A DNA stretch of 43,249 nucleotides from NCBI GenBank assembly GCA_032718475.1, contig JAUCBJ010005838.1, positions 1 through 43,249 of the forward strand, in the 5' to 3' direction. The translations under genes and the position numbers were made by a program. This DNA comes from Nemertoderma westbladi. Taxonomy: Eukaryota > Animalia > Xenacoelomorpha. Each line of letters begins with the position of its first letter. Positions within the stretch are counted from its first letter, which is position 1. This document shows, one piece after another, positions 2,447 to 32,903 of the stretch. The notes beneath the pieces were generated by a model. It ran no database searches. It was not told the origin of the DNA and saw only the letters and a program-made list of their open reading frames with translations.

Positions 2447-2645
2447 TTCAGCAAAGAAGAGCAAACCTATTTCGTATTTTTAACGACACGTGTAAACTAC
2501 CGAACCGCTACCCCTACCCCAGCTGTAAATTTAGTTCTGTTATCAGTATCAGTACAGCAGTAGGCCTACCCCTACAGTATATTACATAAATTAAGATGAA
2601 CCATTAACTTAATTAATTAGGTATATTAACTAGGCCTATTTCATA

Positions 2646-3578
2646 ATGGCGAAACCGAAACTGCGTAACTCAAAGAGTTCCAAAAGTAGAGGCAAACGAT
2701 GGAACTACGCTTTGTATGCGATAGTTATCGCTTCTATCAGTGGACTTCTTTGTTACTATGGGGACCATATACAAATATCAATCTATCATATATTCGAGCG
2801 CCATCTGGCGACACCCGACGGCACTGTAAATCGGAGCCAAGTTGTTCTAGCTTCCGCTTCTAAGTCGGTAGATCTCGCCCATCGCGTAGTAAACTGTTCC
2901 GATGATTACCGCGAGGAGCCGTTCGCAGGCTGCACGCCTACAGTCTGCGGTCGCGGTGTAACCGATACCCTGATCCCACGCGAGATGGCGCTGGTCCTCC
3001 GCGGCCTGGCTTCACGGGGACTCCAACTCGGAGGATCCTCTGGTGGCGTCTCCGTGCTCAACCTCCACACCGGGGCGCTCTCCTACGACGATAAGTTCGT
3101 CGACGTCTATAAACTCATCCGGAAACGTCCCGATTCGGCGACCTACTTCCAGCCGGAGGCCCTCGAAGTCTACGACGAGACAAAAAGGAAGATTAAGCTC
3201 CGGATCGCGAACCACTTTGGCGTGGATCCGACCAAGTTGTTCCTAACGAGTCCGACGTTCTTCTCTCGGATGGAGGGGAAACCGGCACGAACTCTTCACG
3301 ACGAGTACTGGCACAGCCACGTCGACAAGGTCACCTACGAATCCTTCCATTACACCGCTCTTCTCTACCTATCGGACTACGGAACCGACTTCCACGGTGG
3401 CCGTTTCGTTTTCGACGATCTCCATGGCAACACGACTGTGGAACCTCGTCTCGGAAGGGTTTCCTTTTTTACTTCCGGTTCTGAGAATAAACATCATGTT
3501 GAACGCGTTACAGACGGGTTGCGTTACGCCGTTACAGTGGCCTTTACTTGTGATCCTACTAAGGAACTGTTACAATAG
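2646..3578 (+). CDS. OGFOD3: 2-oxoglutarate/Fe(II)-dependent oxygenase, OGFOD3 family, N-terminal membrane anchor, intronless
   Basis: Basic N-terminus plus TM segment (YALYAIVIASISGLLCYY). Family motifs GCTPTVCGRGVTD, GGSSGGVSVLNLHTGALS and LFLTSPTFFSR. HxD in EYWHSHVDK, distal His in ENKHHVE, 2OG-binding Arg in GLRYA. Confidence 0.9.
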   Translation: MAKPKLRNSKSSKSRGKRWNYALYAIVIASISGLLCYYGDHIQISIYHIFERHLATPDGTVNRSQVVLASASKSVDLAHRVVNCSDDYREEPFAGCTPTVCGRGVTDTLIPREMALVLRGLASRGLQLGGSSGGVSVLNLHTGALSYDDKFVDVYKLIRKRPDSATYFQPEALEVYDETKRKIKLRIANHFGVDPTKLFLTSPTFFSRMEGKPARTLHDEYWHSHVDKVTYESFHYTALLYLSDYGTDFHGGRFVFDDLHGNTTVEPRLGRVSFFTSGSENKHHVERVTDGLRYAVTVAFTCDPTKELLQ

Positions 3579-10274: not shown

Positions 10275-10814
10275 AATCACTTTTATGTATATTAATCACA
10301 TTTTAGCAAATTAAACAAAATTAACCAAAATTAATTCAACGATCAAACAACAATCAATTAATTAATTACAACTATTTAACGCAATCCCAGCCTCGGCTAC
10401 AGCCGCGCTCATGCCGGTGTCCTGCATCGTCTGTCTCGTTGCCAGCCTAGCCTTCGGCATCTGTGCGCCCCGGAGGCACATGATGGAGGAACGGAGGAGG
10501 GCGAAACTCAACCGAGTCCTGATGAGGGAGAGAGTCTCCGAGTAGGGAGTGTCCCGTTTCGCCGACAGTAGGAGCGCGATGCGTGTGAGGAGTGCGTGGG
10601 CTGAGCGGCTGGCCCCACCAGTTGTAGCAATTATAAAAGGCGAGAAGCCGGCGTGCTCGACATCATTGATTCTCTCCTCGTACTTCCTCCATTTCTCTCG
10701 ATCATGTTTGCTGTAAGCCGCATCCATGGAGTGAGGATTGGAAGAGCACAGAGGATTGAATACCTTGACGTCGATATACACCCGCTCGAAACGCCCACCC
10801 CACAGCCCATTCGC

Positions 10815-11081
10815 TGTGAGCGGATTCAATTCCGCCTCACATAACCCCCATAAAGTAGGGAAGTGGCGCCTTTAAGCAATATTGGGGAGTACGAGGTTGA
10901 TTACAATCAACCTCGTATCACCCCCAATAATGCAGACAACACACGGCCCCAAAGAGCCACAGAAAAGAGGTTATAGGTCAAATCTCTTGGGAGAGGGAAA
11001 GTAGCAGCAGCGGGGGGGAAGCACTCCCACAGAGGTGGAGGCGAGAAGTGGGATAACAACCAATGGGAGAGGAGAGCATCC
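10815..11081 (+). repeat. Element B 5' LTR, left part
   Basis: Matches 32312-32578; interrupted at CATCC by element A. Confidence 0.92.
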
Positions 11082-12688
11082 TGTTCGCGGTATTTCAACT
11101 TTCCATAACGCGAGTTGAATATTTTTGTATTTATTTAAAATTGATTATTCCGATATTACTACTGGGTGCGGGACCATGGGTTTTGGGCACATTCAATAAA
11201 CTGGGGGCGATTTATGGGCGAACTTTGGGGCAACTTACAGGGTACGGGAATAATTTCATAGTTATAAGGGCCAGGGGGGATGGAAAATGCAAGCAGTATT
11301 CAGGTTAGCCTGAGTACTATTAGGCCCTGGCCAACTTCCTGCTGCCTGTAGGGGTGGATTTGGTAATGCGCCAGGCCTAAAGGACAAGGACTGCCCTTAG
11401 CGGTCCCTGGCCAACGGCAGCTACTACGAGACTGAAAAGAACTCGGAACGCTGACTGCTTGTGTCAGGGATTTGCGACGGGCACCGACGGCCCCTTAGTA
11501 GCCAAGCCGTTCTGGTTCTCGATGATCGAACCCCGGGGTTCGTGAGGGGTGGAGCGGACACGCGAACAGGTGGCCAACTAACGACTGCCCCCTGACCTAA
11601 GCCGTACTGGTTCTCGATGACCGATCCCTTCGGGGTTCGTGAGGGGTGGGACGGACATGCGAAAGGGCTGGCCACAGGACTGGTTTGACAAGGACTGCCC
11701 TTAGCGGTCTCGGGTCAACGGCAGCTACTACGAGCCTGAAAAGAACTCGGAACGCTGACTGCTTGACTGGGATTTGCGACGGGAACCGACGACAGACCCC
11801 TTAGCCAAGCCGTTCTGGTTCTCGATGATCGTTCCCTTCGGGGTTCGTGAGGGGTGGAGCGGACACGCGACGGGGTCGAAAGACAAAGGACTAGACTCGA
11901 CTAGACTCTACCGGCCTACCGACTGTTCGGAGCAGTTTCTCGGCTGCCGAAGCGACTACGAGCCTGAAACGGACTCGGAAAGCCTAGGTGGTTGGGTTTC
12001 TGTGATGAACTGACGGACCCCTAGCCAAGCCGTTCTGGTTCTCGATGATCGAACCCTTCGGGGTTCGTGAGGGGTGGAACGGACACGCGAACGGGTCCAC
12101 CGACACGACAGACTCCTAGCCAAGCCGTACTGGTTCTCGATGACCGAACCCTTCGGGGTTCGAGAGGGGTGGTACGGATACGCGACAGAGTCTACCGACT
12201 GGACCGACCCTTAGCCAAGCCGTGCTGGTTCTCGATGATCGTTCCCTTCGGGGTTCGTGAGGGGTGGAACGGACACGCGACAGGGTCGACCGACACCGAC
12301 ACTACGGCACTAAGACTGGGACTGAGGGAAAATCTGAGGAACATTAGGTAGGCTAAAATTCTGAGCGAACAGTGGGTTATTAAATAATATACCGTAGGGA
12401 TTTATATTATCGTGTATAATTATTGTGAATATTTGGTGTATATTGATTTGGGGAAGCCCAAAATTATTCTTAATCAGGGTTCAATATTGTTGACAAGGTT
12501 CAACAGAGTTCAGTTACATTAAAGAGTATATCCAACTAATGCAGCTTTTTCTCAACCGCAACCCTGCATCTCAGAAATCATTCCTTCTCCACAATCAATA
12601 TCCGGTGACTGGCCGGGGCTCGGTGGTCTGTTAAGTCACGTCTCCAGCATCGGCGTTTTTCCCCCCTGGTGTAGGAATAACGGCAACA
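11082..12688 (+). repeat. Element A 5' LTR
   Basis: Direct repeat of 23886-25492. Confidence 0.95.
11386..12292 (+). repeat. Array of structured repeats inside the LTR (six ~85-nt K-turn-like modules, three GNRA hairpins, two CTGCC/GGCAG hairpins); duplicated at 24190-25096
   Basis: Core AAGCCGTTCTGGTTCTCGATGATCGAACCCTTCGGGGTTCGTGAGGGGTGGAACGGACACGCGA near 11504, 11599, 11807, 12027, 12122 and 12217. Confidence 0.9.
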
Positions 12689-12690
12689 AA

Positions 12691-12703
12691 ATTAAGAATA
12701 ATT
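12691..12703 (+). promoter_or_regulatory. Non-tRNA primer-binding-site candidate (self-complementary to the LTR)
   Basis: ATTAAGAATAATT, 2 nt after the LTR end, is the exact reverse complement of LTR 12462-12474. No TGG-initiated tRNA PBS at this position. Confidence 0.55.
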
Positions 12704-12942
12704 AATGCGGTTAATTTTGACACGGTGTCAAAATTAAGAATAATTATCGTGGTCAACTTCAACTGGTGGAAGTTGAGAATCCTTCAATACTCTTCAAAAA
12801 CTCTCTACGTGCTTGCCAGCACCCACTACGAGGAAACTCTGGTATTTGAGTTGAGACAAAGTCGTGGTTTAATTAATCAGCAAACTCGATCTAACCAACT
12901 CGTAGTCGGCAGATCACATATTTGGAGAGTTGTTAACAGGGA

Positions 12943-13134
12943 ATGGAAGTATCGATCACACCCATTGATATAATTCAAGTTGAGCCAGGAATCTGGCACG
13001 TCGAAGTTGAGGTACAAGGAACGAACGTCGGACGATTCAGGATTACTGTTCGGGTGGTTCAAGCTGAGTACAATACCTACGAGGAACTGTTTTACGACAT
13101 CGCGTATCTCGCCATCGACGAGGCGTTACAATGA
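12943..13134 (+). CDS. Small acidic 63-aa ORF upstream of gag, stop overlapping the gag start (ATGA)
   Basis: ATG at 12943; TGA at 13132-13134 overlaps the gag ATG at 13131-13133. Confidence 0.4.
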   Translation: MEVSITPIDIIQVEPGIWHVEVEVQGTNVGRFRITVRVVQAEYNTYEELFYDIAYLAIDEALQ

Positions 13135-16100
13135 CAACAAATAACGTATCCGATACCGACGAGATGGATCACCACACAGACTCGGAAGCCGACGAGGTAC
13201 CAAACGTCAAAAACATGACCCGTCGGTTAGGGGCTCTTAAAGGCGGAGTAACCCGAGCGTATCAACGGATGGAGAAACAACTCAAGGGAGTCAAAACCCC
13301 CCTCAATGAGGTACAAACTCAGCTTCAAAGTATCCGAAATATCCTACAGCGGTACGAAAGAATGATACAGGCGTACCAAGAGCTCGTTCCCCCCACCGAT
13401 CTGGAAAACTACCCCAAGCTGGAAGAACACGTTGTACATTAGATGGGTTCCGCAAACAACACCGGAGGACCCTCAGCCTTGTGAGAGGCTATGAGGAACA
13501 GTATTACAAGAGGGCTGAAAGAACAGACGCGGAATCAGTACGATCCTCCAGCATCAGGACAGGAGTACATCGCAAGAGAATGGGGTCCACCAGAAATCAG
13601 CACTCCAGCGCTAGGAGCGAGATATCCGGCTCAGCGTGCAGTTCTCAAGGGGCGCCGCCACTCCGAGACCAACTGCGAGAGCGGAAGGCATTAGCCCTCA
13701 AAGCTCGGATGGAAGATGAGTATATTCAACTGCAAGCCGAGCAAGATGTATTAGCTGCAGAAACCCAAAGGCGAGAGGCCGAACAAGCGGCCGAACGGCA
13801 GGCCGAACAACGTGAACAGGAAGCCGAACAACGCAGGCGAGAGGACGAACAACGCAAACGAGAGGACGAACGACAGGCCGAACAACGCAGGCGAGAAGAC
13901 GAACAACGCAAACACGAGGACGAACGACAGGCCGAACAGCGCAAACACGAGGCCGAACAACGCAAACACGAGGACGAACGACAGGCCGAACAGCGCAAAC
14001 ACGAGGCCGAACAACGCAAACAGGAGGCCGAACAACGCGGACGAGAGGCCGAACGGGAGATCGAACAACGTAAATGGGAAGCAGAAATGCGTAAACAACA
14101 CGCCGAGGCCCAAGCAATTCTCATCCACAAAAAGAACGCGGATATTGCAAAACTCGCGGAATACGAAGCCGCACTTATAGAACGAGATATTCAACTCTAC
14201 GAGGACTGGGAGAGGGATATAGATCAGGAATATGAACCAATCCCGGTACCGGAATTAGAAAAGTCATTTATACCGACAGCGGCGAAACTTCCGAAACCCG
14301 AAATCCCGCCTACCAAACAGTCTACGCTATCGGCACAAGCACCGGTGTTCCATCCACCACCGGCGACGCTAAAGAACGAGGAACCTTATTTCCCATCCAA
14401 CACCACGACAGCGAGTGTACCCAAGTACGAGCCTGAAAAGGACTCGGAACGGGACGCCACTCCCCGATCAAACAACCCATTTACATCAACACCACAAACT
14501 CGTAGCCGCGTCATTATTAAAACTCCGCCTATCATTGATCCATCAAGTATGGGAGTGAGTGCCAATAACTATAACCCTCCGAGTCACTCCAGTTCAGACG
14601 ACGTCAGCATCATCCGGGCGTTGGAGAACCGCCTTGCCATGCCGAAGATGGAGATTCGCACCTTCGAAGGAGATCCCGTCGATTACCTCAGATTCAAGAA
14701 ACGGTTCTTTGCGCAGATTGGATCAACGGACATAGCCGACGCACAGAAATTGGTATATTTATCGCAATACCTGGGTGACAAACCCCGCAGAATTGTTGCA
14801 TGTTTTGAAGGAGGTTCTCATGAGGCATACTATGACGCATGGAAAACTCTAGACAAAAGATACGGAAATACCGGAACTATAATTAATAAAACTCTAGAGA
14901 GACTGATACAGGATGCAGGATCACTAGGGGACCCACAGAACATACAGGAATTCTCCGACTCTATGAAAGATGCCTATTATACTCTGAAGCCCTTAAATAA
15001 GGAGGACCAGGTGAACAACATTCTAAACCTCCGACAGATCGCCCGGAAGTTCCCCGGATGGCTACAAAGTAAGTGGGCTTATAAATGTGTAGATCTCCGG
15101 CGCAGACATCCAGATCGAGATCCTAGCTTCCTTGAAATGTCGGCATTCCTGGACGATATCTCCGAAGCCATGAATGACTCGATGTTTTCAAAACAAAGTC
15201 TCGCAAAGTTGGACGGAATAGAGAGCAACTCTAGGAGTAAGATAACCCCTCCGAAACCAAGATTCCGCCCCCCACCGGTAAGTACGATGGCCATCACCAT
15301 GGCTGAGGATTCCGACGACGAAGACTACGAGGAACCGACATCCGCCAAGGAATGGGCATGTTATCTCGCGAATTGGGCCCCCGAAAGGGAAGGCGTCACA
15401 AATTCCCTACTCTGTCTCTTCTGTGGGGAGAAACATAAAGTGGAATTCTGCAGGAAGTTTCAGTTCGCCGAACTCGTCCCACGTTTCGAGGCGATAATGA
15501 AACACCGAGGATGCTTCCGGTGTCTTGGAACAGGTCACTACGTTCGGGATTGCGACCAAAGGTCGTGCTGTGCTGTCTGTAACGACCAACGCCATCACAC
15601 GCTCCTCCACATCCCCGCGAACTTCGACTTTACTACCCTCCCCTTTCGGATCGAAGCCAGGCGAAGAGGAGAAACAAACCACGTCTTCAAAGGAACCCGG
15701 ACAACCCAACGGAGAGAAACCAACCCGTTTAAAATCTCCACCGCTACACCACAAGTAACAAATATTTCGGCCACGATTAATCTTATAAATCGCCGCTACA
15801 TGGTTTTCGCAAAGGTAATCCCAGTAAGGATCCAAGGAGTCGGCAAATCTTTGACGACACTCGCATTCCTCGATAACGGGTCCGACGGAACCATCATCGA
15901 CCGGGATTTTCTCGAGCAACTCGGCCTAGAATATGAGCCTTGTAAACGGCCCATACAAACCATCACCGATAACAGAGAGGTAGAGTCCGGGGAGGTGCAA
16001 CTCCAGATGGAAGGAGTGATGAAGGGCTACGAAACGGCTAAGTTAACCATAAAGAACGCCTTGGTACACACAGACCTCCGGGTGCGGTTCCGACAATCAG

Positions 16101-19100
16101 CCGAGTACGCCCCCCTCATACAATTGGACCGGGACGATGTAGACCTGAGGTGTCCGCAGTTGGACGTAAACCGTATCACCCTACTGATCGGACTTGATAC
16201 ACCGGAACTACACATCCCCACCGGAGATATCGCCCGATCTATAAACCAGGATGACGGATTTTATGCTGAACGAACAATAATGGGATGGACACTCTGCGGC
16301 ATTAAGGAGGAAACCACGGACACCTATACCTACCTTCCCAAATGTCAGATTAAAGAGAATGTAACCTCCGTGGGTTACTGCTCAGCTTCGGATCTCGACG
16401 AGGATTTGTTTCTGGAAACCGAGAAAACCCAACGAGAGATGACGAAATATTTTAATTTGGAGACCCAGGAGTTCGCGGAAAAGGACGAAAATCCATCCGA
16501 AGAGGACCAATATTGTATGGACGTTCTCGACCAGGCCACGTTTAAAGACGGACACTGGAGTTCACCTATGTTATGGAAGGACCCAAACAAACCAATGGCA
16601 AACAACGCCAGCATGGCACTTAGGCGACTTAAAGGGATTCTACGCCGGTTGAATGACCAACCCGAGATAAAGGAGAAGTATAACACCGTAATCCAAGGAT
16701 ATCTCGATGATGGATTAGCAGAAATGGTACCACGGAACGAACTGCAAGGTGGTAAAAGAACATATTATCTCCCGACCCACTATGTAGTAGAAGCCCGCAA
16801 AGGTGGGAAAATCCGAGTGGTAAATGATGCTGCCGCTATATACCAGGGCGAATCCCTAAACAGTCAACTTTATACGGGACCCAACATATATAGCACACTC
16901 ATCGGCGTATTGATCAGGTTCAGGGAAAACCGGGTAGCATTCACCTGTGACATCAAGGCCATGTTTCATCAAGTTCGTACATTACCAAGAGACTCGGACT
17001 GTCTACGTATCCTATGGACGGATAAAACGCTTACTCAACAGGAGATTAGCCAACTCACGATAAAGGACGTAGACATAATGCGTATGGTCGTCAGGATCTT
17101 CGGCGCTAAGGACTCGCCGGTAGCATGCAGTGACATGCTAAAGAGGACGGCAACCAATTGCGAAAACGAGTTCCCTCCAACCGTCATAGAAACCATTCGA
17201 CGATGCTTCTACGTGGACGACGGATGCGCTGGCGCGGATAATGTAGATGAGGCGTATCAGCTAGCAATGGGGATGGTAGAATGTCTAAAGAAAGGAGGGT
17301 TCCCACTCGTGAAGTTCAGATCCCACGACAAAACACTTATGGAAAAGTTTCCGGAGGATATCCGGCTGGAAAATAACAAGATGTATTCGGAGGATGTGGA
17401 ACATCGTGTACTCGGGATTGAATGGGACATAGAATCAGATGAATTCATCTTCAAATATAAACCCCTACCCAAGCCTATGACAAAAAGGGGATGTTTGTCG
17501 ATAAAAAGTGCAATCTTCGACCCACTAAATTTCATATCTCCAGTAACCTTGGCCGGAATGAACCTGATTAAGGAAATGTGGATAGAAGGACTGGGATGGG
17601 ACGAAGAGCTTCCCCCATACCTTAGCGTCAAATGGAGAAAATGGACGGAGCAACTCGAACACCTACATCTTATGCGGATACCTAGACCGTTCTTCCTCGA
17701 TAAACTGCCCACCGATATCTTCCAGCTCCACACCTTTTCGGATGCTTCAAATACCGGAATCGGCGTAGTAACCTTCTTACGGAGACTAAGTAGCGATGGA
17801 AACGGCGATACAAGCTTCTTATTCTCCAAAGCAAAGACGGTATCCGGGGAATTCGTAGCAACGATTCCGAGACTCGAGCTACAAGCTGCAGTTTGGGCAG
17901 TAAGACAGAATCGCATGGCCATGCGGAACCTACGGATCCCCATAGAATCTCAACACTTCTGGGTAGATTCGAGTATAGTTCTCTATTATCTCCACTCTCC
18001 ATCACGGCGTCACACCACGTTTGTTGCAAACCGAGCCACAGAGATTAAACAGTGTACCGGCCGAGAACAGTGGCATCACGTAAACGGGAAGGAAAACCCA
18101 GCGGACTAATCAAGCCGAGGCGCCACCCCAAAACAACTCGGTAAAAGTAAACTCTGGCTTACAGGCCCGGAATTCCTACGGCAGCCACAGTTAACATGGA
18201 GTACCCGATTCGACCCCGAACTCGATAGCGGAAAATACTCCGAGGACGATAAAGAGATTCGTAAAATCCATCGAAGCAACGCGGTGGAAATTTATAGTTG
18301 CCTGACTGAGCCTGCAAAGGACTCGGGCAGGCACTATAACGTCGCGACGATCACTCAACTAGCGACGTCTTTACATCGGTTGATCGAGCGAACTTCATCC
18401 ATGAGACGGCTCGTCCACCATGTTATAACCCTTCGCAACTTCCTACGGTGGAAAAACAACAAACCGATAGTTCAACGGAATATACAAGAACTCATTATCG
18501 CGGAGAAGTGTATTGTTAGATATGTCCAGAAAGAAAGTTTCCCCGATGAATGGGAACAACTTAGTGCGGGCAAAACGTTGAAACCGGACAGCCCAGTCTA
18601 CCAACTAAGACCAATGATGGGAGAGGACGGACTGATCCGACTGAATACCCGGATGGCAAACGCCCCGGTCGAATATGAGGTTAAATACCCGGCGCTCTGC
18701 CCGGAACGTCGACACTAGCTAAGCTATTAATTCTACAATGTCACGAGGACAACCACCACGCAGGACAGAATTGGATTATAGCTAATATAAGACAAAGATA
18801 TTGGATCACCCATATCCAGCCACTGATCCGGAAAGTGTTGAAACGTTGCTTCACCTGCAGACGTTACCTAGCGCCACCAATCACTCAAAAGATGGCCGAC
18901 TTACCAGCCACCCATCTACAAGCGGATTCCCAGCCATTCTACGTCACCGGGGTGGACTGTTTCGGACCGTTCACGGTTATTGAACGACGATCCAACATCA
19001 AATGCTGGGGAGCCATCTTCACCTGCCTGAGGTCTAGGGCAATTTACCTAGATATCGTGGTAAATCTGACACAACACGCATTCATCAACGCTCTGCGTCG

Positions 19101-19916
19101 GTTCGTGGCGAACAACGGGACATGCCACCACATGTATTCCGATAATGGTACAAACTTTGTGGGAGGAGAAAGGGAACTCAGAGAGGCGATCGAGGGATGG
19201 TTTACCGATAACACACCGCATCCCAAGTCTGGAAGGAACACCAGATACAGTGGCACTTCCAGACCCCCTTAGCCCCCCATACGAGCGGGGTATGGGAGAA
19301 ACTGATCGACCTCGTGAAACGATCCATGCGCGTCGCTCTAGGCGATACCCGGGTAACCCATGATACCCTCCGCACAACATTCTGCGAGATCACGGCTACC
19401 CTGAACAACCGACCTATTGTCCCTATCCGCGACGACCCCACAGACCTGGAGCCCCTCACTCCTAACCACCTACTGGGGAGACCCAAAACCCACGTTCTCC
19501 CGGAAACCATGTTCCCGGATCCCAACGAGATCGCGAAGCATACAAACTGGAAAAAGGCCCAAGCGTTGGCAGCGCATTGGTGGAGAATTTGGGCCCAGGA
19601 ATATCTCATAACCCTCCGGACCAGGAGAAAATGGAACAACACCTACCGGAACGTCGCAGTTGGCGACATGGTACTAGTTAAAGAAGATCTCAAAGACCGC
19701 GTTCACTGGCCTGTGGCGCGGGTCGTGACCATACACCCAAGTAAAGACGGACTTGCGAGGACTGTGACGATACGAACGGCAAAGGGCCACTACCAACGCC
19801 CTATCCAGAAGCTGTGCCTTCTTGAAGGCAATGACAGTGGTGATTCTACGAGAGGTGATAAGATCCCTACTCAAGATCCTGCTGTGGACATTGGTGACAA
19901 TTACAAATCTGTGTAA
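13131..19916 (+). pseudogene. BEL/Pao gag-pol polyprotein, disrupted by frameshifts (~13439, ~18715, ~19230) and a stop (18107-18109)
   Basis: DUF1759-like PKMEIRTFEGDPVDYLRF. Zn knuckles CLFCGEKH, CFRCLGTGHYVRDC, CAVCNDQRHHTLLH. Protease FLDNGSDGT. RT RVVNDAAA, DIKAMFHQV, FYVDD. RNase H LHTFSDAS, TIPRLELQAA, NPAD. Integrase HEDNHH...CFTC, VDCFGP, SDNGTNFVG, APHTSGVWEKL. C-terminal WAQEYLITL. Confidence 0.95.
13770..14100 (+). repeat. Coding tandem repeats (EQRK/EDERQA coiled coil) in gag
   Basis: Repeated GAGGCCGAACAACGCAAAC-type units. Confidence 0.85.
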
Positions 19917-20191
19917 CCCTTCTCATCATGTTGACAAACTCTTATAAACTGTGATTTATCGACAACGAATTATGGACCCCCTTTAAACAACTGTAACCAC
20001 GCAATGGTATTTGTGTTTCCTCGTGTGTTATGTGGAGTCCAGCATCACCCTGCAGATGTTTCGACTGACGCAGGGTCGTTTATGTATTGTTTACCCTGAT
20101 TTTGGTCATCAGGACCTACGATATTGGATTATTGGAAATGGAAAAGATTTGAAGTGGAATTCATTGTATTCATTGCAGTATGTTATGTTGT

Positions 20192-20610
20192 CCGTTGCGT
20201 GCGCAGTTTGGGGCGTAGGCGGTGTAACGAGTCCAGCTGTAGATCCTGGATTGCCGCGCAACACCCCCTCTATCCCGTTATTCTGGTGGGTCCATGGTGC
20301 ATCCACATGACTTCGACGATAGAGGGTTTTATGTTTCTCAGTCGCGTTATTCTGGTGGGACCGTTACGTGGATTTTGGGGCGTAGGCGGTGTAACGAGTC
20401 CAGCTGTAGATCCCAGAATGTTGCGTAACCCCATCCCACATGACTTCGTCGACTGAGCTTTATGTTGTTGGGAGTGTTATTCTGGTGGGTCCCTGGTGCA
20501 TCCACGTGACTTCACTCCTAGCGTCTTCATTGTCCGTTACGTGCGCAGTTTGGGGCGTAGGCGGTGTAACGAGTCCAGCTGTAGATCCCAGATTGCCGCG
20601 TAACACCCCT
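20192..20610 (+). repeat. Interleaved structured repeats between pol and the accessory ORF
   Basis: Motif X TTTGGGGCGTAGGCGGTGTAACGAGTCCAGCTGTAGATCC x3 (20207, 20375, 20549). Motif Y GTTATTCTGGTGGG...CCAC[A/G]TGACTTC x3 (20277, 20346, 20476). Confidence 0.9.
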
Positions 20611-21163
20611 TCCACGACAAAGATTAACCAAAGAAAATGATTGAATATAGTTGGAAATGATGAAAAGGATCAGACAACTCTACTATAAACCTGAATGATG
20701 ACGCGTATGCTGATGAAAATGTGATGATGCGCACCCTGGTGCTGCGCTTATAACAAATGATGATAGCCGGGGGGCTATAAACCCAATGATGATGTGGAAA
20801 TAAATAAATGTGAAATAAATGGTGGAACTAAATGTTGAAATATATGTGGAAATAAATGAAATGAAATGAAATAATAATGAAAGGAAAAAAGACAAAAAAA
20901 AGGTATAAAAGAGGTCAAAGAATATAATTGGAAAAAAAAAAAGGACAAAAAAGTCATAAAAAACTGGTTGGATATTATGTATAGCTATAGTAACTGTAAA
21001 TGCTGAATGTATTAGCAATAAGATGATAGATGCCTATATAGCAATGTTATTTAATAAACTGAATTAAATAAAAAAAAACTGAATTATTCTGCTATCGCTA
21101 TAGTTTCAGACTTTCTGGACTTATAATTAACTGAACTAATTTGTAACGGATATAATCGTAAAT

Positions 21164-23719
21164 ATGGACCCAAATCGCCAAATTATCGGCGAATTACGTA
21201 ACACGATAGATCTACTGGAATATTCGCAACCCGGATCCCCTGACTTTGATACAAATTGGAGCATTCTGCTAAATGAGAACGTATGAGAAGTTAAATTCAC
21301 CGGGCGAGAGGGACCGGATTCTAAGAATCTACGAGCCCTCCGGTTAGCCGATGCTAGTACGAGACTGAAAAGAACTCGGAACGCAAAGGCAACCGGAGGG
21401 GACGATTCGTCGTTTTGGGAAACGTTCCGGCAGAACGTCTACAGATCCCGATGTTTGATCTACGACAACGAGGGAAACGCGACGCCCACCTCGAAAGCGA
21501 TTACGTTGGCGAGATGTCAAAGTTTCGTCGACGACAAGAGTACGTACCTAGCCCACTGGGGAAACCTGTCGGAGTGTACGGCGAAGCTTCGAGAGGAACG
21601 CGTATCGATTATCCAAAACCGCGACGACTACCAGGAAAAGTACGGGGCGAAAGAATACGGTCGATCCTTAGTCGTCGTCCTCGGAACCCTGGACGGTTTG
21701 GTACTGGTGTGCCGAATATTCCCGACACCCAGACAGGAAGTGCAGGCAGCCGGAGCGATCTGGTTGCTGCCTCCGGAAATCCAAAAGATCCTCTTCGACT
21801 TCGACGTCATTAAAATCGGGTCGGATATCAAGGCGGACGTCCGGAACGACTACGCGAACGCTCCCGCAGGAAGAAACCGACGAAACGACCTCAACGCACT
21901 TAGCCATTGCATCGACACTCAAACGCTGCTAGCCTGGTTACGATTCGCCGAGTTCATGCGAGGATTCCAAGAAGTGAGACCGACGAAATCCGGGATCGGC
22001 TACCTCGCTGTGCTCAACGGCGGTATCGACTTCAAACCCCAGAAATTCCGGGACTATAATAAAATATACGGCGGATACCCGGGATTAGAGATAAAGAGCG
22101 AGCGAGAGGGTCGATGGAAGGACGTCGATCGGAAGTGGACGATACACCAAAGGTGGGAGAATCCCGATCGACGGAGCTATATCTACGTCGTTATGGAATG
22201 CTACACCGTCGCTAAGTTTATCTGTAAAACTCTCGATAACCTTATTACGGCGGTCCCCCTTTCCTTCGTCGACTACGACTGGAACGAGGTTATAAACCAC
22301 GCGTTTAAAGCGGTCGAGAACATTACACCGGGAGAATCAAAAACGCCCGCCGTTATTGATTCCTGGGACGAGAGCGGACCTTACGACATCCCTACGATTA
22401 CCGAACTTCTCGGTGCGGAGGAGCCTCTGATCTCCTCGGAAGGGGAAGAGATATGGCTAAACGAGGGTGTTCTACTCTCCACCCCGAAGCGACAACTCGA
22501 GCCGGAGGCCGCGTACGGACCGGCCGCCAAACGGGTCGCCTCGGCCGAACCGATGAAGAGAGCAGGCGTCTACACCCCACGCGGCTCCGGTAGCCCCGCG
22601 AGAGAGGTAGCCACTACGGCTGCATTGAGCGACTTCGGCGACATATGCCAACGGTTATCCCCGTATCCTTTCCCGGGCGGCGAAGATTGGTTGTCGGAGA
22701 TTCCGAGTACCAGCCACCAACGGACCCGCTCAGCGATACTGGTCGAGGAAGGCCCCAGCGATGCGCCGACACCCGACGATCTCCTCGGTATCCCTCCGTC
22801 GAAAACCCCGGCACCTCTTCGCCGACCAGCGGTGGCTACTACACCCGCCGTTCCTCAGGACCCTATGCGACTAACCCGTTGGTACGCCGAGCAAACTGAA
22901 TGGATCCACCGCCAGAAACGGTCATCCGAGTTGAGACCAGCGGGACACAAAGAGGGTTATCGGAGCGAGAACATACTACGCAAAAGCCTAGCATTCCGCG
23001 GGCTACCGACCACCGAGAATATTCCGAAGAGCGACCGACGACTCGAATACTACGTCGGCGTCCCGATTCCGATATTCCCCGGTCGAGAAACGCAGTTGGA
23101 GGTATGCGGCGACTGCGGCTCGGAGCAGTGCCCACGCGGCAGAAGGAATCGGGTTACCGATTCTTGCCTCCAGCTCCTCGGGATACTCTATTGCCCATAC
23201 TGCGCGATATCGGGCCACGACGTTTCGGTCTGTCCGATCCTTTATAACCTCTGCACCACGTGCGGTTTCCGTGGACATTCCGCTATGGGCAATATGGTCA
23301 CGTTTGAGACATACGCAAACAGCCACTTAAAGACCAAGTTTCGGAGAAACACTCGGAATATCGCGCAGGAGATGGCGTGCGGATATTTCTCCTTCCCGGA
23401 ACGCCTCCACACGTCGGCCTCGCTACCCTTCCATTACGTGGATCTGCTACTGAGCGCCGGATTATTCGGTCCATTCGAAGTTATTAGACGATTATACTCG
23501 TATAAAGAGGAGTTCGGTGACGGAGAATGGTTCCTAGAGGCACGCAACTCCGAGTTGGAAAGACGAACCGACATGATCCCGATGCCTTCGAAAGGAAGAG
23601 CCGCCAGGAGATAAGCCGAAGCGTTACTCACAATGGATGTTGACGCTCCTCTACCAGCCATAGCGATCGATGAGAGTCGACGGGCGAAGAGACGAAAGGC
23701 GTACCAGAAAAAGAAATAA
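21164..23719 (+). CDS. Accessory ORF of element A: DEDDy-type 3'-5' exonuclease, disordered linker, CCHC zinc knuckles and basic tail; in-frame stops at 21284 and 23612
   Basis: ATG 21164 is in frame with the 719-aa ORF. ExoI-like IYDNEG. WRN/EXD-like LLPPEIQKILFDFDVIKIGSDIKADV (ExoII), CIDTQ, KSGIGYLA and WENPDRRSYIYVVMECY (ExoIII-like). CPYCAISGHDVSVC and CTTCGFRGH. Reading through 23612 adds ...RRAKRRKAYQKKK. Confidence 0.75.
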
Positions 23720-23885
23720 TGGATTGGGATATTCCAGGAACATTTATCGAACATTTATTTTTATACAAACTCTAGGCCAAATTAATTAAAAACTATGCAA
23801 TATTAAATTTGTGATTTTTTATATTGGGAATGACCTACGCAAACTCAATCGACCGACAGACTTCACGAAGGTCATTGGGGGGGAC

Positions 23886-25492
23886 TGTTCGCGGTATTTC
23901 AACTTTCCATAACGCGAGTTGAATATTTTTGTATTTATTTAAAATTGATTATTCCGATATTACTACTGGGTGCGGGACCATGGGTTTTGGGCACATTCAA
24001 TAAACTGGGGGCGATTTATGGGCGAACTTTGGGGCAACTTACAGGGTACGGGAATAATTTCATAGTTATAAGGGCCAGGGGGGATGGAAAATGCAAGCAG
24101 TATTCAGGTTAGCCTGAGTACTATTAGGCCCTGGCCAACTTCCTGCTGCCTGTAGGGGTGGATTTGGTAATGCGCCAGGCCTAAAGGACAAGGACTGCCC
24201 TTAGCGGTCCCTGGCCAACGGCAGCTACTACGAGACTGAAAAGAACTCGGAACGCTGACTGCTTGTGTCAGGGATTTGCGACGGGCACCGACGGCCCCTT
24301 AGTAGCCAAGCCGTTCTGGTTCTCGATGATCGAACCCCGGGGTTCGTGAGGGGTGGAGCGGACACGCGAACAGGTGGCCAACTAACGACTGCCCCCTGAC
24401 CTAAGCCGTACTGGTTCTCGATGACCGATCCCTTCGGGGTTCGTGAGGGGTGGGACGGACATGCGAAAGGGCTGGCCACAGGACTGGTTTGACAAGGACT
24501 GCCCTTAGCGGTCTCGGGTCAACGGCAGCTACTACGAGCCTGAAAAGAACTCGGAACGCTGACTGCTTGACTGGGATTTGCGACGGGAACCGACGACAGA
24601 CCCCTTAGCCAAGCCATTCTGGTTCTCGATGATCGTTCCCTTCGGGGTTCGTGAGGGGTGGAGCGGACACGCGACGGGGTCGAAAGACAAAGGACTAGAC
24701 TCGACTAGACTCTACCGGCCTACCGACTGTTCGGAGCAGTTTCTCGGCTGCCGAAGCGACTACGAGCCTGAAACGGACTCGGAAAGCCTAGGTGGTTGGG
24801 TTTCTGTGATGAACTGACGGACCCCTAGCCAAGCCGTTCTGGTTCTCGATGATCGAACCCTTCGGGGTTCGTGAGGGGTGGAACGGACACGCGAACGGGT
24901 CCACCGACACGACAGACTCCTAGCCAAGCCATACTGGTTCTCGATGACCGAACCCTTCGGGGTTCGAGAGGGGTGGTACGGATACGCGACAGAGTCTACC
25001 GACTGGACCGACCCTTAGCCAAGCCGTGCTGGTTCTCGATGATCGTTCCCTTCGGGGTTCGTGAGGGGTGGAACGGACACGCGACAGGGTCGACCGACAC
25101 CGACACTACGGCACTAAGACTGGGACTGAGGGAAAATCTGAGGAACATTAGGTAGGCTAAAATTCTGAGCGAACAGTGGGTTATTAAATAATATACCGTA
25201 GGGATTTATATTATCGTGTATAATTATTGTGAATATGTGGTGTATATTGATTTGGGGAAGCCCAAAATTATTCTTAATCAGGGTTCAATATTGTTGACAA
25301 GGTTCAACAGAGTTCAGTTACATTAAAGAGTATATCCAACTAATGCAGCTTTTTCTCAACCGCAACCCTGCATCTCAGAAATCATTCCTTCTCCACAATC
25401 AATATCCGGTGACTGGCCGGGGCTCGGTGGTCTGTTAAGTCACGTCTCCAGCATCGGCGTTTTTCCCCCCTGGTGTAGGAATAATGGCAACA
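23886..25492 (+). repeat. Element A 3' LTR
   Basis: Direct repeat of 11082-12688, preceded by a G-run PPT. Confidence 0.95.
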
Positions 25493-25497
25493 CATCC

Positions 25498-25822
25498 ACT
25501 AGGTACAGAGGCCAAGATACTGTAAGATTAGCCAATGTATATATTATATTGCATGCAGTGAAGTTATTCAGTTATTCCATTCATTAGTGCAGTTAGGTGA
25601 CATTTTCGTACCGTCACCATCATTACCGGTCAGTAGCATCTATATTACTTAACTTATCTTATTACCGTCACCCAGTCAACTGTGCTATTATATCTCATTG
25701 CCGTATATCAATCAACCTGTAACAGCATATCAATATCAGAACAACAAACTATTATCTTCTTTCACAACGAGCGGCGACGCGTAACGAAAACAAACCAGTC
25801 GGGATCCCCTGATCCCATCACA
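25498..25822 (+). repeat. Element B 5' LTR, right part (TATA-like ~25538, Inr-like TCAGTT 25568)
   Basis: Matches 32579-32903; 267+325 = 592 bp reconstitutes the LTR. Confidence 0.92.
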
Positions 25823-25887
25823 GTACGAAAATCTAGACAACTGCTAAAGCTGTGACTGCCAGCCACCAACAAAGAAAGCGTTAAAGG

Positions 25888-28800
25888 ATGAGCGAAGCCC
25901 AAAACCTAGAGGGAGAGACGACACCGTCGCTGACCCCGGACGATACCAACGAAACGATCCATGAGGCCACGACGCGACGGTATTGACCCGCAATGCCGGA
26001 CTCGCCGGAACGGGACGATCCGGTAGCCCAAGCGGGGGGCGGCCGTCTACCAGGATGAGGGAATGAGTCGACGCACAATGGTGATCGACGTACCGATGTC
26101 GCCGGCCAGCCACAGGCCGAGGGCGACGGACGGCCCACCAGAACGGCGACGGTGGGGCCGCCGGTACGACGCCAAACCAGGAGGGGAGGAGGAGAGGTCA
26201 GCGACGAGGATGTCGGAACCAGTGACCGGCTCTGATGAGCCTACAACGCAACAAAGAAACAACTCAAGGAGGCTAGAGAAGGAGTAAAGATAGATCAAGG
26301 GAAGTTGAGCCGGCGACTAGGTGAGTCGAATAAACACTTCAACTAACTAGTTCGCTTCGGGCAGGGAGAACTAGCCAGTTAGAGAGCGAGGGGGGTCGCC
26401 ACCGAACTATTTGAACTGTGGCGATCTGGGATAATGGAGCCACAGATAGTGTACATAGGGCTGTATTTAGTGGATGCTAGGGGAATTAAGTTAGTGGGTT
26501 GGGCAGACCCGCACGAGGGCGAATCCGAGATTAACCCCGAGGATTCGGTCTCGTCGGCTAGCGAGAACCCCAGAAAGCGGGGGAAAGTTAGTAGGACAGA
26601 GAGGCGACGGGAGTCCATCGCAACCGACAAGTCCGCTACATCCTCCGCAAAAGCAAGAAGGGTGTTAGAAATAGATCCGGCGTGTCAGTTGGATATGGTG
26701 GTGCTAGACCAGAAAGAGTTAGAGAGGCAGTTGGAAGAGGGAACTGCGTTGTTGGAAAGAGAGAGAGAACTGGCGAGAGAGAATAAAGAGAGGGCTGAGA
26801 GGGTCGCGAGAAACTTTAGAGAGTGTGAGGAGATATAAATAAGGGAAGGAAAGGAGCGAGAAGAGCGAGAGGCGAAAGAGGCGAGCGAACGTAAGGAGCG
26901 AGAGGCGAAAGAGGCGAGCGAAAGTAAGGAGCGAGAGGCGGAAGAGGCGAGCGAACGTAAAGAGCGAGGGGCGAGAGAGGAGAGTGAACGTAAAGAGCGA
27001 GAGGTGAGAGAGGAGAATGAACGCAAAGAGCGAGGGGCGAGAGAGGAGAATGAGCGTAAAGAGCGTGAGGCGAGAGGGGCAAGCGAGTGAAAAGAGCGTG
27101 AGGCGAGACGGCTTGAGAGGATTGCGAGAGAGGCGGAATTGGCCGAGCAGAGTTTGCGAGAGGATAGGGAGAGAGAGAGAACGGGAAAGCGTGTGCGGGA
27201 TGATATGCACGCCCGGTTGAGGGGGCTTATGCAATATCAGGCCAAACAGAAGCGCAGTTGGGGCTGTCAGAGAGTGAGGCTGGCTCGGGTAGTGTTTACG
27301 AGGAGCCAGAAGTTATGGAAACGTTTGTTATTACCCCACTTACAGGGACCGGACGACATACCCAAGACTGGTGTAACCGTACGGGCGGGGAGGGGGGGGG
27401 GGTAATAATAATACGTTAGAAAACGTTAATATTAATAGTACCGTAGTGGATAACCCTAATCAAACTTTCATTGCAGCAAATAACATTTTGCCCGGTAATA
27501 GTAATTTAAATCCGAATGATCCTAATTTAAATGTAGAAAATGATTCAAATAATCTAGATTCGAATATACAAAATAATTAAATTAATTTAAATTTAAATAC
27601 GCAAATAATCTAAATAATAATCTTACTTCAAACGAACAAAATAACCCCAATTCTAACCAAAATATACGAAATAATTTAAATAATAATCCGAATTCAGAGA
27701 ATAATTCTAATAATTTCAATAATTTCAATAATAATATTGATAACGGGGCTATTAATAATAACATGGAAGACACAGGTGGGCCGGCCAACCGAAGCCTGCA
27801 AGGCAACGTAGTTAGTACGCAGGGAGTAGCGGGGGTGAGTGACCCCGACGGGAGCCTGCAAGGCCACGTAGTTAGGCAGGGAGTAGCGGGGGTAAGTCAA
27901 CCCGACGGAAGCCTGACAGGCTACGCAGTTGCACAGGGAGAGGTGGGGGTGAGTAGAACCAGCCGCAGTAGAGACAGTGCGTCGACTAGAGAGGGGTGTA
28001 GAAGCGAAGTAGGAGGTAGTGAAGTTAGAAGTGGCGAGTGGGGGGGGGGGGGGGCTACGGGCGCCCCACCACGGAAGATTAGTGGCGAGAGAGGGGGAGC
28101 AGAGAATGGAGCAGAGTCAGTGGGGTCGAACTCCGGGAGATTGCCGTCGCCCTGGAGAGACACACCGCACGCCGAGAGAGGGGTACAGAATGTACCGATA
28201 CGAAGACGAGAACAGGAGAGGGGATCGAAGAGAAACTTCCCGATGGGATATAGCTGCCGATCGAGAGTACGGTAGTCGCAGGGAGATTCGAGATTCGAGA
28301 AGATTAAACTTCGGTTCGGGAAGGGCACATGCAGACTGCAGGACATGCTGTAGGACTTACTGCACATACTATTATAGGCCATGCTGGGAGAGATAGTGTG
28401 GCGATAGGGTAGCGCGAACGACGGGATTAGATCCGGGAGTCGCGGAGTACATGCCAGTAGGTAGGCAAGAAGTGGATAGGCTTATATCGGTACCAGCACA
28501 GCAGCATGACTATAATATGCAGGGACATAACATATATCCAGGGGAGGGGAGAGTTATTGCAGATAGATGTATGGGCCCCAATATATTAACATCAACCCCA
28601 GTACCAAACATACCGATGGGGGGGGGGGGGGGGGGACAGGGTGACATTCCCCCATTACATTATCAACAATACACTCAAACAGGAATAAGAACATCGAATC
28701 CCCTGGATGAGGACAGGTCGTGCGACACGGAAATATGGAGGGGGCCGCTACCCCCAATGATATATCCGAGACAGAGAGAGTCAACAGGCCCGATGGGCGG

Positions 28801-31249: not shown

Positions 31250-32060
31250 AAATAATTATTTAAATAAAATAATAAAAATAATTAAATAATTAAATAAGAA
31301 GAAAGTTAGGAAGTAATAGTTAGTAGAAGATAGTAAGTAGAAAGTTAGAAGTATGAAAGTTAGTAGAAGATAGTAAGAAGTTAGTAGTCAGATAGTTAGT
31401 AGTTAGAAGATAGTAAGTAGTAGTCAGAAAATTAGTTAGAAAGTTAGTATGAAGATAGAAGTCGGCGGGTATAGGGAGTGTGGTATATAGACATACCACG
31501 GGAGTAGAGGGGTACGTGGTACAGTTAGAAGTCGGCGGGTAAGGGAGTGCGGTATATTAACATGCCACGAGTAGTAGTAGAGGGGTTGTGGGCACCGTAA
31601 GCGGCACGTAGAAAGTAGTAGTAGAGTGGTTGTGGGCACCGAAAGCACCACGTAGATGGAGGTAGTAACAGAGTGGTTGTGGGCACCAAAAGCGCCACGT
31701 AGTTAGAAGTGTTGGTAGAGTTAGAGAGTTCTAGTTAGGAGTTAGAGAGTTAACAGAGTTAGGAGTTAGTTAGAGTTAGTAGAGTTAAGAGTTAGTTAAA
31801 GTTAGTAGAGTTAGAGAGCTAGTTAGAGTTAGTAGTAAGTAGTAAGTAAGTAAGTAGTAAGAGAGTTAGATAGTGAAGAAGTAAGTAAGTAGATAGAATG
31901 ATAGCACAGGGGTAACATAAGAGATTTAGCACCTTTGAATGCGAGAGAGAGTGCAGACGAGTGCGATCAAGGTGTGGGGAGAGAGCAGACTGGAGTTAGA
32001 GTGGAGCAGAGAGAGATTAAGATAGAGTTAGAGTGAGAAGTTAGAGTTTGAGTGAGAGAG
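31250..32060 (+). repeat. Strand-biased low-complexity (AGTT/AGTA/AG) tract with embedded short repeats in the 3' region of element B
   Basis: Long C-poor runs; GGTTGTGGGCACC...CACGTAG x3; GAAGTCGGCGGGTA...GGTATA x2. Confidence 0.85.
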
Positions 32061-32311: not shown

Positions 32312-32903
32312 TGTGAGCGGATTCAATTCCGCCTCACATAACCCCCATAAAGTTGGGAAGTGGCGCCTTTAAGCAATATTGGGGAGTACGAGGTTGATTA
32401 CAGACAACCTCGTATCACCCCCAATAACGGGGACAACACACAGCCCCAAAGAGCCACACAAAAGAGGTTATAGGTCAAACCTCTTGGGAGAGGGAAAGTA
32501 ACAGCAGCGGGGGGGAAGCACTCCCACAGAGGTGGAGGCGAGAAGTGGGATAACAACCAATGGGAGAGGAGAGCATCCACTAGGTACAGAGGCCAAGATA
32601 CTGTAAGATTAGCCAATGTATATATTATATTGCATGCAGTGAAGTTATTCAGTTATTCCATTCATTAGTGCAGTTAGGTGACATTTTCGTTCCGTCACCG
32701 TCATTACCGGTCAGTAGCATCTATATTACTTAACTTATCTTATTACCGTCACCCAGTCAACTGTGCTATTATATCTCATTGCCGTATATCAATCAACCTG
32801 TAACAGCATATCAATATCAGAACAACAAACTATTATCTTCTTTCACAACGAGCGGCGACGCGTAACGAAAACAAACCGGTCGGGATCCCCTGATCCCGTC
32901 ACA
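32312..32903 (+). repeat. Element B 3' LTR
   Basis: TGTGAG...GTCACA, preceded by the PPT at 32303-32311. Confidence 0.93.

Follow-up and report, generated by a model that had tools for sequence, protein, structure and literature searches.

Why should a retrotransposon carry the same short hairpin both in its long terminal repeats (LTRs) and inside three of its coding regions? The question is raised by a contig of Nemertoderma westbladi (JAUCBJ010005838.1, assembly GCA_032718475.1), which we analysed over its whole 43,249 nucleotides (the window) and which holds a BEL/Pao retrotransposon, element A, at 11082-25492. The original prediction described a bulged-A GNRA hairpin recurring nine times along this element and suggested a dispersed packaging, dimerisation or export signal, analogous to phage operator hairpins. 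In our opinion the motif is very probably a selected RNA structure of some function. As to what that function is, we tentatively prefer a dispersed multivalent tag through which zinc-knuckle proteins of the element itself would select and compact its RNA, a preference based on analogy which we would not go so far as to call probable.

The repeat itself is beyond doubt. With up to two mismatches allowed, a 19-nt core is matched nine times, at 11427, 11731, 11959, 14428, 18307, 21360, 24231, 24535 and 24763, precisely as predicted. All nine matches are on the + strand and within element A, and none of 100 dinucleotide shuffles gave a single core match. A covariance model trained on six of the copies recovers all nine at 46-65 bits (by construction); among the 16 matches listed for the window its best score outside these nine is 11.7 bits (E 0.3), and the possibility that the motif is equally frequent outside the element can be set aside for the window. 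The count of nine is therefore right, but the nine are not independent: the three copies in the 3' LTR duplicate those in the 5' LTR, which leaves six independent sites. Genomic RNA would carry six copies, and nine only if the LTR array lies in R. Candidate TATA, initiator and poly(A) words are present at both LTR ends, and the array may lie in U3, R or U5.

Three of the independent hairpins, all on the + strand like the rest, belong to the 5' LTR: LTR1 at 11400-11475 (core 11427-11445), LTR2 at 11704-11777 (core 11731-11749), which is 95% like LTR1 over 79 nt, and LTR3 at 11932-12003 (core 11959-11977). The others lie in coding sequence, as had been claimed: one in gag (14413-14462, core 14428-14446) in a low-complexity linker, one in pol between RNase H and integrase (18280-18346, core 18307-18325), and one near the start of the accessory open reading frame (ORF) (21332-21404, core 21360-21378). 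All these coding copies are placed in poorly conserved linkers. They are indeed read in different frames, the gag and pol copies sharing one (YEPEKDSE, TEPAKDSG) and the accessory copy using another (TRLKRTRN). A motif at the peptide level is ruled out by the two reading frames together with the non-coding copies. The gaps between independent sites are 2469, 3879, 3053 and 2871 nt, a spacing of 2.5-3.9 kb that three random points would reach with P=0.0075, calculated post hoc.

Might the signal reside in the DNA? One could regard the motif as inverted CGAG-N11-CTCG half-sites for a transcription factor or a chromatin protein, forming an enhancer in the LTR and the ORFs. The 4-bp arms are invariant and do not covary, and three copies are clustered in the LTR, which would suit such a site. 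However, all six independent sites are sense-oriented, and the asymmetric loops and long flanking stems are sensible for a single strand only. We find this explanation hardly credible.

The predicted fold of the module

In the predicted fold the copies have in common a long stem, a loop E (8/9), a helix of 4 bp, one unpaired A and a UG(A/C)AA-N loop that is closed by C-G. Constant in all six independent copies are GAG/CUC, the C-G pair, U-G-x-A-A and, ahead of CUC, a single unpaired A. Some 17 positions are invariant, and the near-invariant module comprises 28 nt. At the base next to UGxAA on its 3' side, the window copies have A or C, and a common variant of the family has G. LTR1 shows the arrangement in full, with the loop E (ACUA/GAA) on the long stem, then the 4-bp helix, a 1x2 loop and a UGAAA-A cap. 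The accessory copy has an AGUA/GAA loop E, the 1x2 loop and the same cap, and the gag copy AGUA/GAA, a single bulged A and again UGAAA-A. In LTR3 the cap is UGAAA-C, for which no standard GNRA closing pair is possible, and in the pol copy the cap is UGCAA-A.

Each copy tops a 50-75-nt stem of its own, unshared sequence. In folding windows that were picked by hand these stems score from z -1.8 to -6.1 (LTR1 -4.4, LTR2 -2.5, LTR3 -1.8, gag -2.6, pol -4.0, accessory ORF -6.1). An unbiased scan of the ORFs of the element in 70-nt windows ranked the coding copies 1 (pol), 3 (accessory) and 10 (gag) of 358. Below loop E, both partners differ from copy to copy in two of the three pairs, giving a covariation score that 5 of 500 shuffles reached; the GNRA model gave no covariation. 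A hammerhead ribozyme was rejected by eye, as its core would need CUGANGA. Searching positions 10500-26000 against Rfam returned two matches (E 0.87 and 1.5), both far below gathering scores and off the motif.

The ribosomal loop E/sarcin-ricin motif carries a tetraloop, and in the sarcin-ricin loop this is a GNRA tetraloop stacked directly on a single C-G pair above loop E. The likeness to that loop noted in the original prediction holds for one half only. A loop E is present in eight of the nine copies; just as described, the flanks read AGUA...GAA at 14424 and 21356, while the LTR copies have ACUA. A mimic of the sarcin-ricin loop, on the other hand, has to be rejected: above loop E come a 4-bp helix and a further loop, with no tetraloop directly on it. 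The loop E pattern N-A-(G/C)-U-A opposite G-A-A-N is found in five of the six independent copies, its bulged base being G or C. Its lower closure of 3 bp is complete in 6/9 copies and reduced to 2 bp in the LTR3 pair. PMC6633198 describes both the G-U-A and the C-U-A triplet, the latter as a modelled variant in PSTVd; the AGUA/ACUA switch therefore supports a real loop E, matching the PSTVd variant. With 5S rRNA and PSTVd our motif shares the 5x4 loop between helices in both triplet variants (PMC6633198). It differs in being repeated in the RNA of a retrotransposon, in having a 4-bp helix and six-base cap instead of a tetraloop, and in being missing from the pol copy. Judged by these motif rules, there is strong support for the predicted loop E fold.

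The cap is a more delicate matter. Letters of a GNRA loop occur in 9/9 copies (GAAA in 8, GCAA in 1), so this part of the predicted bulged-A hairpin survives. The CCU-GAAA-AGG stem with one bulged A does not, as it pairs fully in only two of the nine copies (14428 and 18307); elsewhere the first pair would be A.A or C.A (5/9) or the closing pair U.C (2/9). In all nine copies, on the contrary, the pentaloop reads U-G-H-A-A, its U and its last A being invariant; a C:G pair closes it and one base (A or C) is bulged. UGHAA is the T-loop consensus in riboswitches (bioRxiv 2022.12.26.521914). T-loops are closed by a reverse-Hoogsteen U.A pair and leave a gap that takes an intercalating base (PMC4810234). 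Apical T-loops have 1-3 bulged bases, and those with a single bulge are mostly C:G-closed (PMC2615604). A further source, PMC3884659, deals with Watson-Crick cross-loop pairs and does not favour either T-loop or GNRA. A close comparison is with the T-loop/UA_handle type I of FMN and cobalamin riboswitches, rRNA and tRNA, which shares UGHAA, the C:G closing, the variable third base and the bulge 3' of the loop, and which in FMN and cobalamin riboswitches has two bulged bases against one here. From the sequence we moderately favour a T-loop over a GNRA loop for the cap.

The LTR also contains a second hairpin. In a kink-turn, two helices flank a 3-nt bulge and the tandem G.A/A.G pairs that come after it, with U at L3. 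Six kink-turn-like hairpins occupy 11495-12295 on the + strand (starts 11495, 11590, 11798, 12018, 12113 and 12208), and six more lie at 24299-25099 in the 3' LTR, also on the + strand. Each is made of a CCG stem, a bulge of 3 nt with its tandem G.A pairs, and a UUCG loop; beneath lies a 4x4 loop rich in purines. If the motif is written T and the kink-turn-like hairpin K, the order in the LTR is T-K-K-T-K-T-K-K-K. The kink-turn sequence pattern is found in 12/12 copies, the next pair being U.U in 8, C.U in 2 and C.A in 2. Covariation among these hairpins was not above shuffles (254/500), and their minimum-energy fold is an alternative U-A pairing. Such hairpins could bind proteins of the Snu13/L7Ae type.

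With two hairpin types at hand, one may ask whether a dedicated protein is needed at all. An adenine supplied by another copy or by a kink-turn hairpin might be taken up in the T-loop of one copy, and the genome would compact or dimerise by RNA-RNA docking. T-loops reportedly take part without exception in long-range contacts or in the binding of a ligand (PMC2615604), and the base that intercalates in them is near-exclusively adenine (bioRxiv 2022.12.26.521914). An invariant unpaired A is available in every copy, and within the LTR hairpins of one type alternate with those of the other. However, the idea hinges on the T-loop, a reading in which our confidence is moderate; no receptor sequence of the FMN or cobalamin type was identified; and loop E would be superfluous. 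Altogether we think docking without a protein unlikely.

Constraint at the gag copy and a neutral origin

Element A is a member of a diverse family, since two sequencing runs with the same organism label hold 9823 and 4780 contigs of 80-100% likeness to it. Family members were compared at the gag site, where contigs of four runs (three samples) were aligned on 14340-14530. The summed contig depth has its maximum on the gag motif, but depth is not interpretable here and was given no weight. For the pol and accessory copies, 40 of 743 variant rows were inspected and none of these lies inside either copy, which we do not count as a sign of conservation. In this region 22 places vary at a level of at least 2%; the counts that follow are confined to 14371-14500, as edge variants are under-listed nearer the alignment ends. 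Of third codon positions, none of 9 varies inside the motif and 16 of 35 vary outside (one-sided P=0.0097), a modest sign, for the gag copy, of the synonymous-site constraint for which the original prediction proposed a test. For all positions the figures are 1/26 and 21/104 (P=0.035). Of 105 windows of 26 nt, only three contain no more than one variable place, and these coincide with the gag motif. The sole change inside it concerns the variable cap base and turns Lys into Arg. In the lower stem, a variant at 14416 converts U.G into C-G, and a rare one at 14452 (1-3% of depth) breaks a pair. Several contigs with 13-20 differences begin aligning at 14412-14422, that is, at the 5' edge of the hairpin, a weak hint that diverged subfamilies may keep the gag hairpin. 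The claim of conservation at the nucleotide level is upheld, for an RNA motif of the sense strand whose gag copy varies less from one family member to another.

Does this exclude a neutral by-product? Template switching could have placed a segment of the LTR in tolerant linkers, where descent alone would have preserved it. The accessory copy does share 26 exact nt with LTR1, every coding copy sits in a poorly conserved linker, and the constraint test is modest and concerns one site. But the long pairing stem under each copy is peculiar to that copy; the minimum of variability falls exactly on the gag motif; and copies have survived in frame three times across two frames. These points make a neutral origin very unlikely in our opinion.

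What the module may be for

CCHC knuckles are encoded in both Gag, which has three, and the accessory ORF, which has one full and one degenerate knuckle behind a DEDDy-exonuclease-like region, and their proteins are candidate readers. According to the tag proposal, Gag or the accessory exonuclease-like/CCHC protein would bind loop E at its widened groove, and also the flipped A. A T-loop normally needs a docked adenine, and copies might then touch each other or the kink-turn hairpins. Binding and compaction would be cooperative along the genome, and the RNA would be picked out for particle assembly. Any of the functions originally suggested, packaging, dimerisation or export, may apply.

The operators of MS2 and PP7 and the packaging signals of STNV are comparable in that several similar hairpins with an unpaired A occur along a genome, coding sequence included. 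The present module is much longer and near-invariant, would employ non-canonical three-dimensional motifs, and is hosted by an LTR retrotransposon. The analogy to a phage operator in the sense of a single site fits less well than dispersed multivalent signals.

Several observations weigh against the tag as we propose it, or against the fold it builds upon. First, covariation support is weak: sliding the partners by +1 yields a score of 0.175 vs 0.192, nearly equal, and the core 4-bp helix never covaries. Second, in the pol copy (18307) loop E is replaced by a paired stem. Third, G is found at the gag-site bulge in 21-28% of the summed family depth in three runs and in the sole contig of the fourth. 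Since G is disfavoured at the bulge of folded UA_handles (PMC2615604) and U.G would close a GNRA loop, this weighs against a T-loop. Fourth, a stricter cut that allows for the higher depth on the motif changes the third-position comparison to 0/9 vs 11/35, P=0.054, and a stretch immediately before the motif (14389-14413) likewise has nine third positions in a row without variation. Fifth, the even spacing may merely mirror the positions of tolerant linkers. Sixth, any subgenomic RNA would likewise bear the accessory-ORF and LTR copies, which suits a signal for selective packaging of the genome less than ideally. Finally, a scan of related BEL elements with a covariance model, as proposed in the original prediction, found no full motif in distant relatives: the best 80 of 520 confirmed metagenome BEL loci (30-42% identity) gave no descriptor hits, and the best score of the model on those 80 was 16.1 bits (E 0.19), without the helix. 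Exact-pattern scans of viral contigs, metagenome contigs and prokaryote genomes gave no match either. Because it is absent from the 80 distant BEL loci and from the other collections, we regard the motif as lineage-specific, not as a general BEL signal.

If a host factor were the reader, the copies would tag genomic and subgenomic RNA alike. The motif would then serve nuclear export or germ-line transport, in the manner of localisation stem-loops or export elements. Signals of the Egalitarian type occur once or twice per RNA. The bulged 50-75-nt stems resemble the 40-65-nt stem-loops read by Egalitarian, such as the K10 TLS and one in the I factor retrotransposon; the reader has a DEDDy-fold domain (bioRxiv 2025.08.03.668247), and element A encodes a DEDDy-like ORF. 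Moreover, motifs of the GA or kink type act as transport codes (PMC4033767). The known signals, however, are defined by shape and have little sequence in common, whereas the present motif has about 17 invariant positions. We consider a host signal improbable.

The accessory ORF itself (21164-23614, + strand, ATG at 21164) has in this copy an in-frame stop at 21284-21286, 40 codons after the ATG. Its resemblance to DEDDy 3'-5' exonucleases is weak, judged by its sequence. The lead came from Atlas (0.93, with PF01612 on 42% of members). A relative, P0123 (648 aa, 31% identity), has the same layout and a weak PF01612 match, and of four library matches to the ORF three align over the DEDDy-like region, the fourth being an unrelated repeat protein. 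The first acidic motif of the region looks altered. Searches gave no homologue near its own length, no Pfam match and no sequence match in the Protein Data Bank (PDB); two structure models reached a pLDDT of 38-40, and the fold search was without a match at E<=0.001. A DEDDy ORF3 is known in the rotifer LTR elements Juno and Vesta (PMC5408684), which likewise have an extra ORF after pol with an exonuclease-like region and a Cys/His motif. The excerpted part of that paper does not show them as BEL/Pao, describes no RNA hairpin array, and has no BEL/Pao element with such a DEDDy/CCHC ORF.

An exonuclease-like protein invites a further speculation, namely that the element marks its own RNA against it: tagged RNA would be spared or loaded, while untagged or small RNAs would be trimmed. 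The DEDDy-like character of the accessory ORF and the rotifer precedent (PMC5408684) speak for it. Yet the domain call is weak, with neither a Pfam nor a PDB match and with both models at a pLDDT of about 40, the first acidic motif appears altered, and internal tags could not stop a nuclease that works from the 3' end. We take self-marking to be extremely improbable.

To return to a tag read by the element's own proteins, its most elaborate version would combine these threads. The lineage would have assembled an RNA code of riboswitch grade out of three-dimensional modules of ribosomal type. Hairpins with loop E and T-loop, set every 3 kb across gag, pol and the accessory gene and alternating in the LTR with box C/D-type kink-turns, would let the genome fold and dimerise by T-loop docking. 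Their reader would be a protein of the element with an exonuclease fold and zinc knuckles, which would thus be the viral equivalent of Egalitarian or Rev. In this full form the idea is distinctly doubtful. To our knowledge RNA selection, export and dimerisation are largely unmapped for LTR retrotransposons outside yeast. A near-invariant 28-nt module in coding sequence offers a small and directly testable substrate for such studies. An array of loop E, T-loop and kink-turn in a eukaryotic transposon, if true, would carry motifs of ribosomes, riboswitches and viroids into mobile elements. The component three-dimensional motifs and dispersed RNA signals were already known, while their combination in a BEL/Pao lineage appears to be new; our literature searches, whose coverage left out most subscription papers, found no description of a comparable module in a BEL/Pao element.

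Element A and its surroundings

Element A has Pao-type pol domains, TG...CA LTR ends and a 5-bp target-site duplication, and thus belongs to BEL/Pao. Its 5' LTR spans 11082-12688 and its 3' LTR 23886-25492, both on the + strand, with CATCC just before the former and after the latter. The 3' LTR holds the three cores at 24231, 24535 and 24763 along with its six kink-turn-like hairpins. As the two LTRs differ at 4 of 1606 positions compared, the insertion is young. Directly 3' of the 5' LTR (12689-12760) no obvious tRNA primer-binding site was found; in this region an 11-nt stretch from the LTR end recurs 42 nt downstream. The gag-pol region (13310-19916, + strand) has Peptidase_A17, DUF1759, DUF5641 and Integrase_H2C2 domains. 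In this copy it consists of four ORF pieces, with a stop at 18107-18109 and frame changes near 18.7 and 19.2 kb, and gag appears to start near 13131 in another frame. The nearest homologues of gag-pol are only 29-38% identical, and a search of viral contigs returned no relatives of the element.

The gap between pol and the accessory ORF contains three structured repeats (20188-20270, 20355-20437 and 20530-20612), in which a 40-nt core that does not vary is borne on a long stem, together with a GUA/GUA internal loop and an apical loop of 10 nt; a compensatory change from G-C to A-U is seen among them. Within this core, a heptamer complements the 3' arm in three of the six variants of the motif, which may be chance.

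Element A sits inside an apparent LTR of an older LTR element, B, whose interrupted copy (10815-11081 and 25493-25792) corresponds to an intact match at 32312-32873. The covariance model did not find the motif in the part of element B within the window. The 3' non-coding part of B has three tandem small hairpin-like repeats (31571-31710). Farther upstream, at 2634-3578, lies a single-exon ORF of 314 aa with a 2OG-Fe(II) oxygenase domain.

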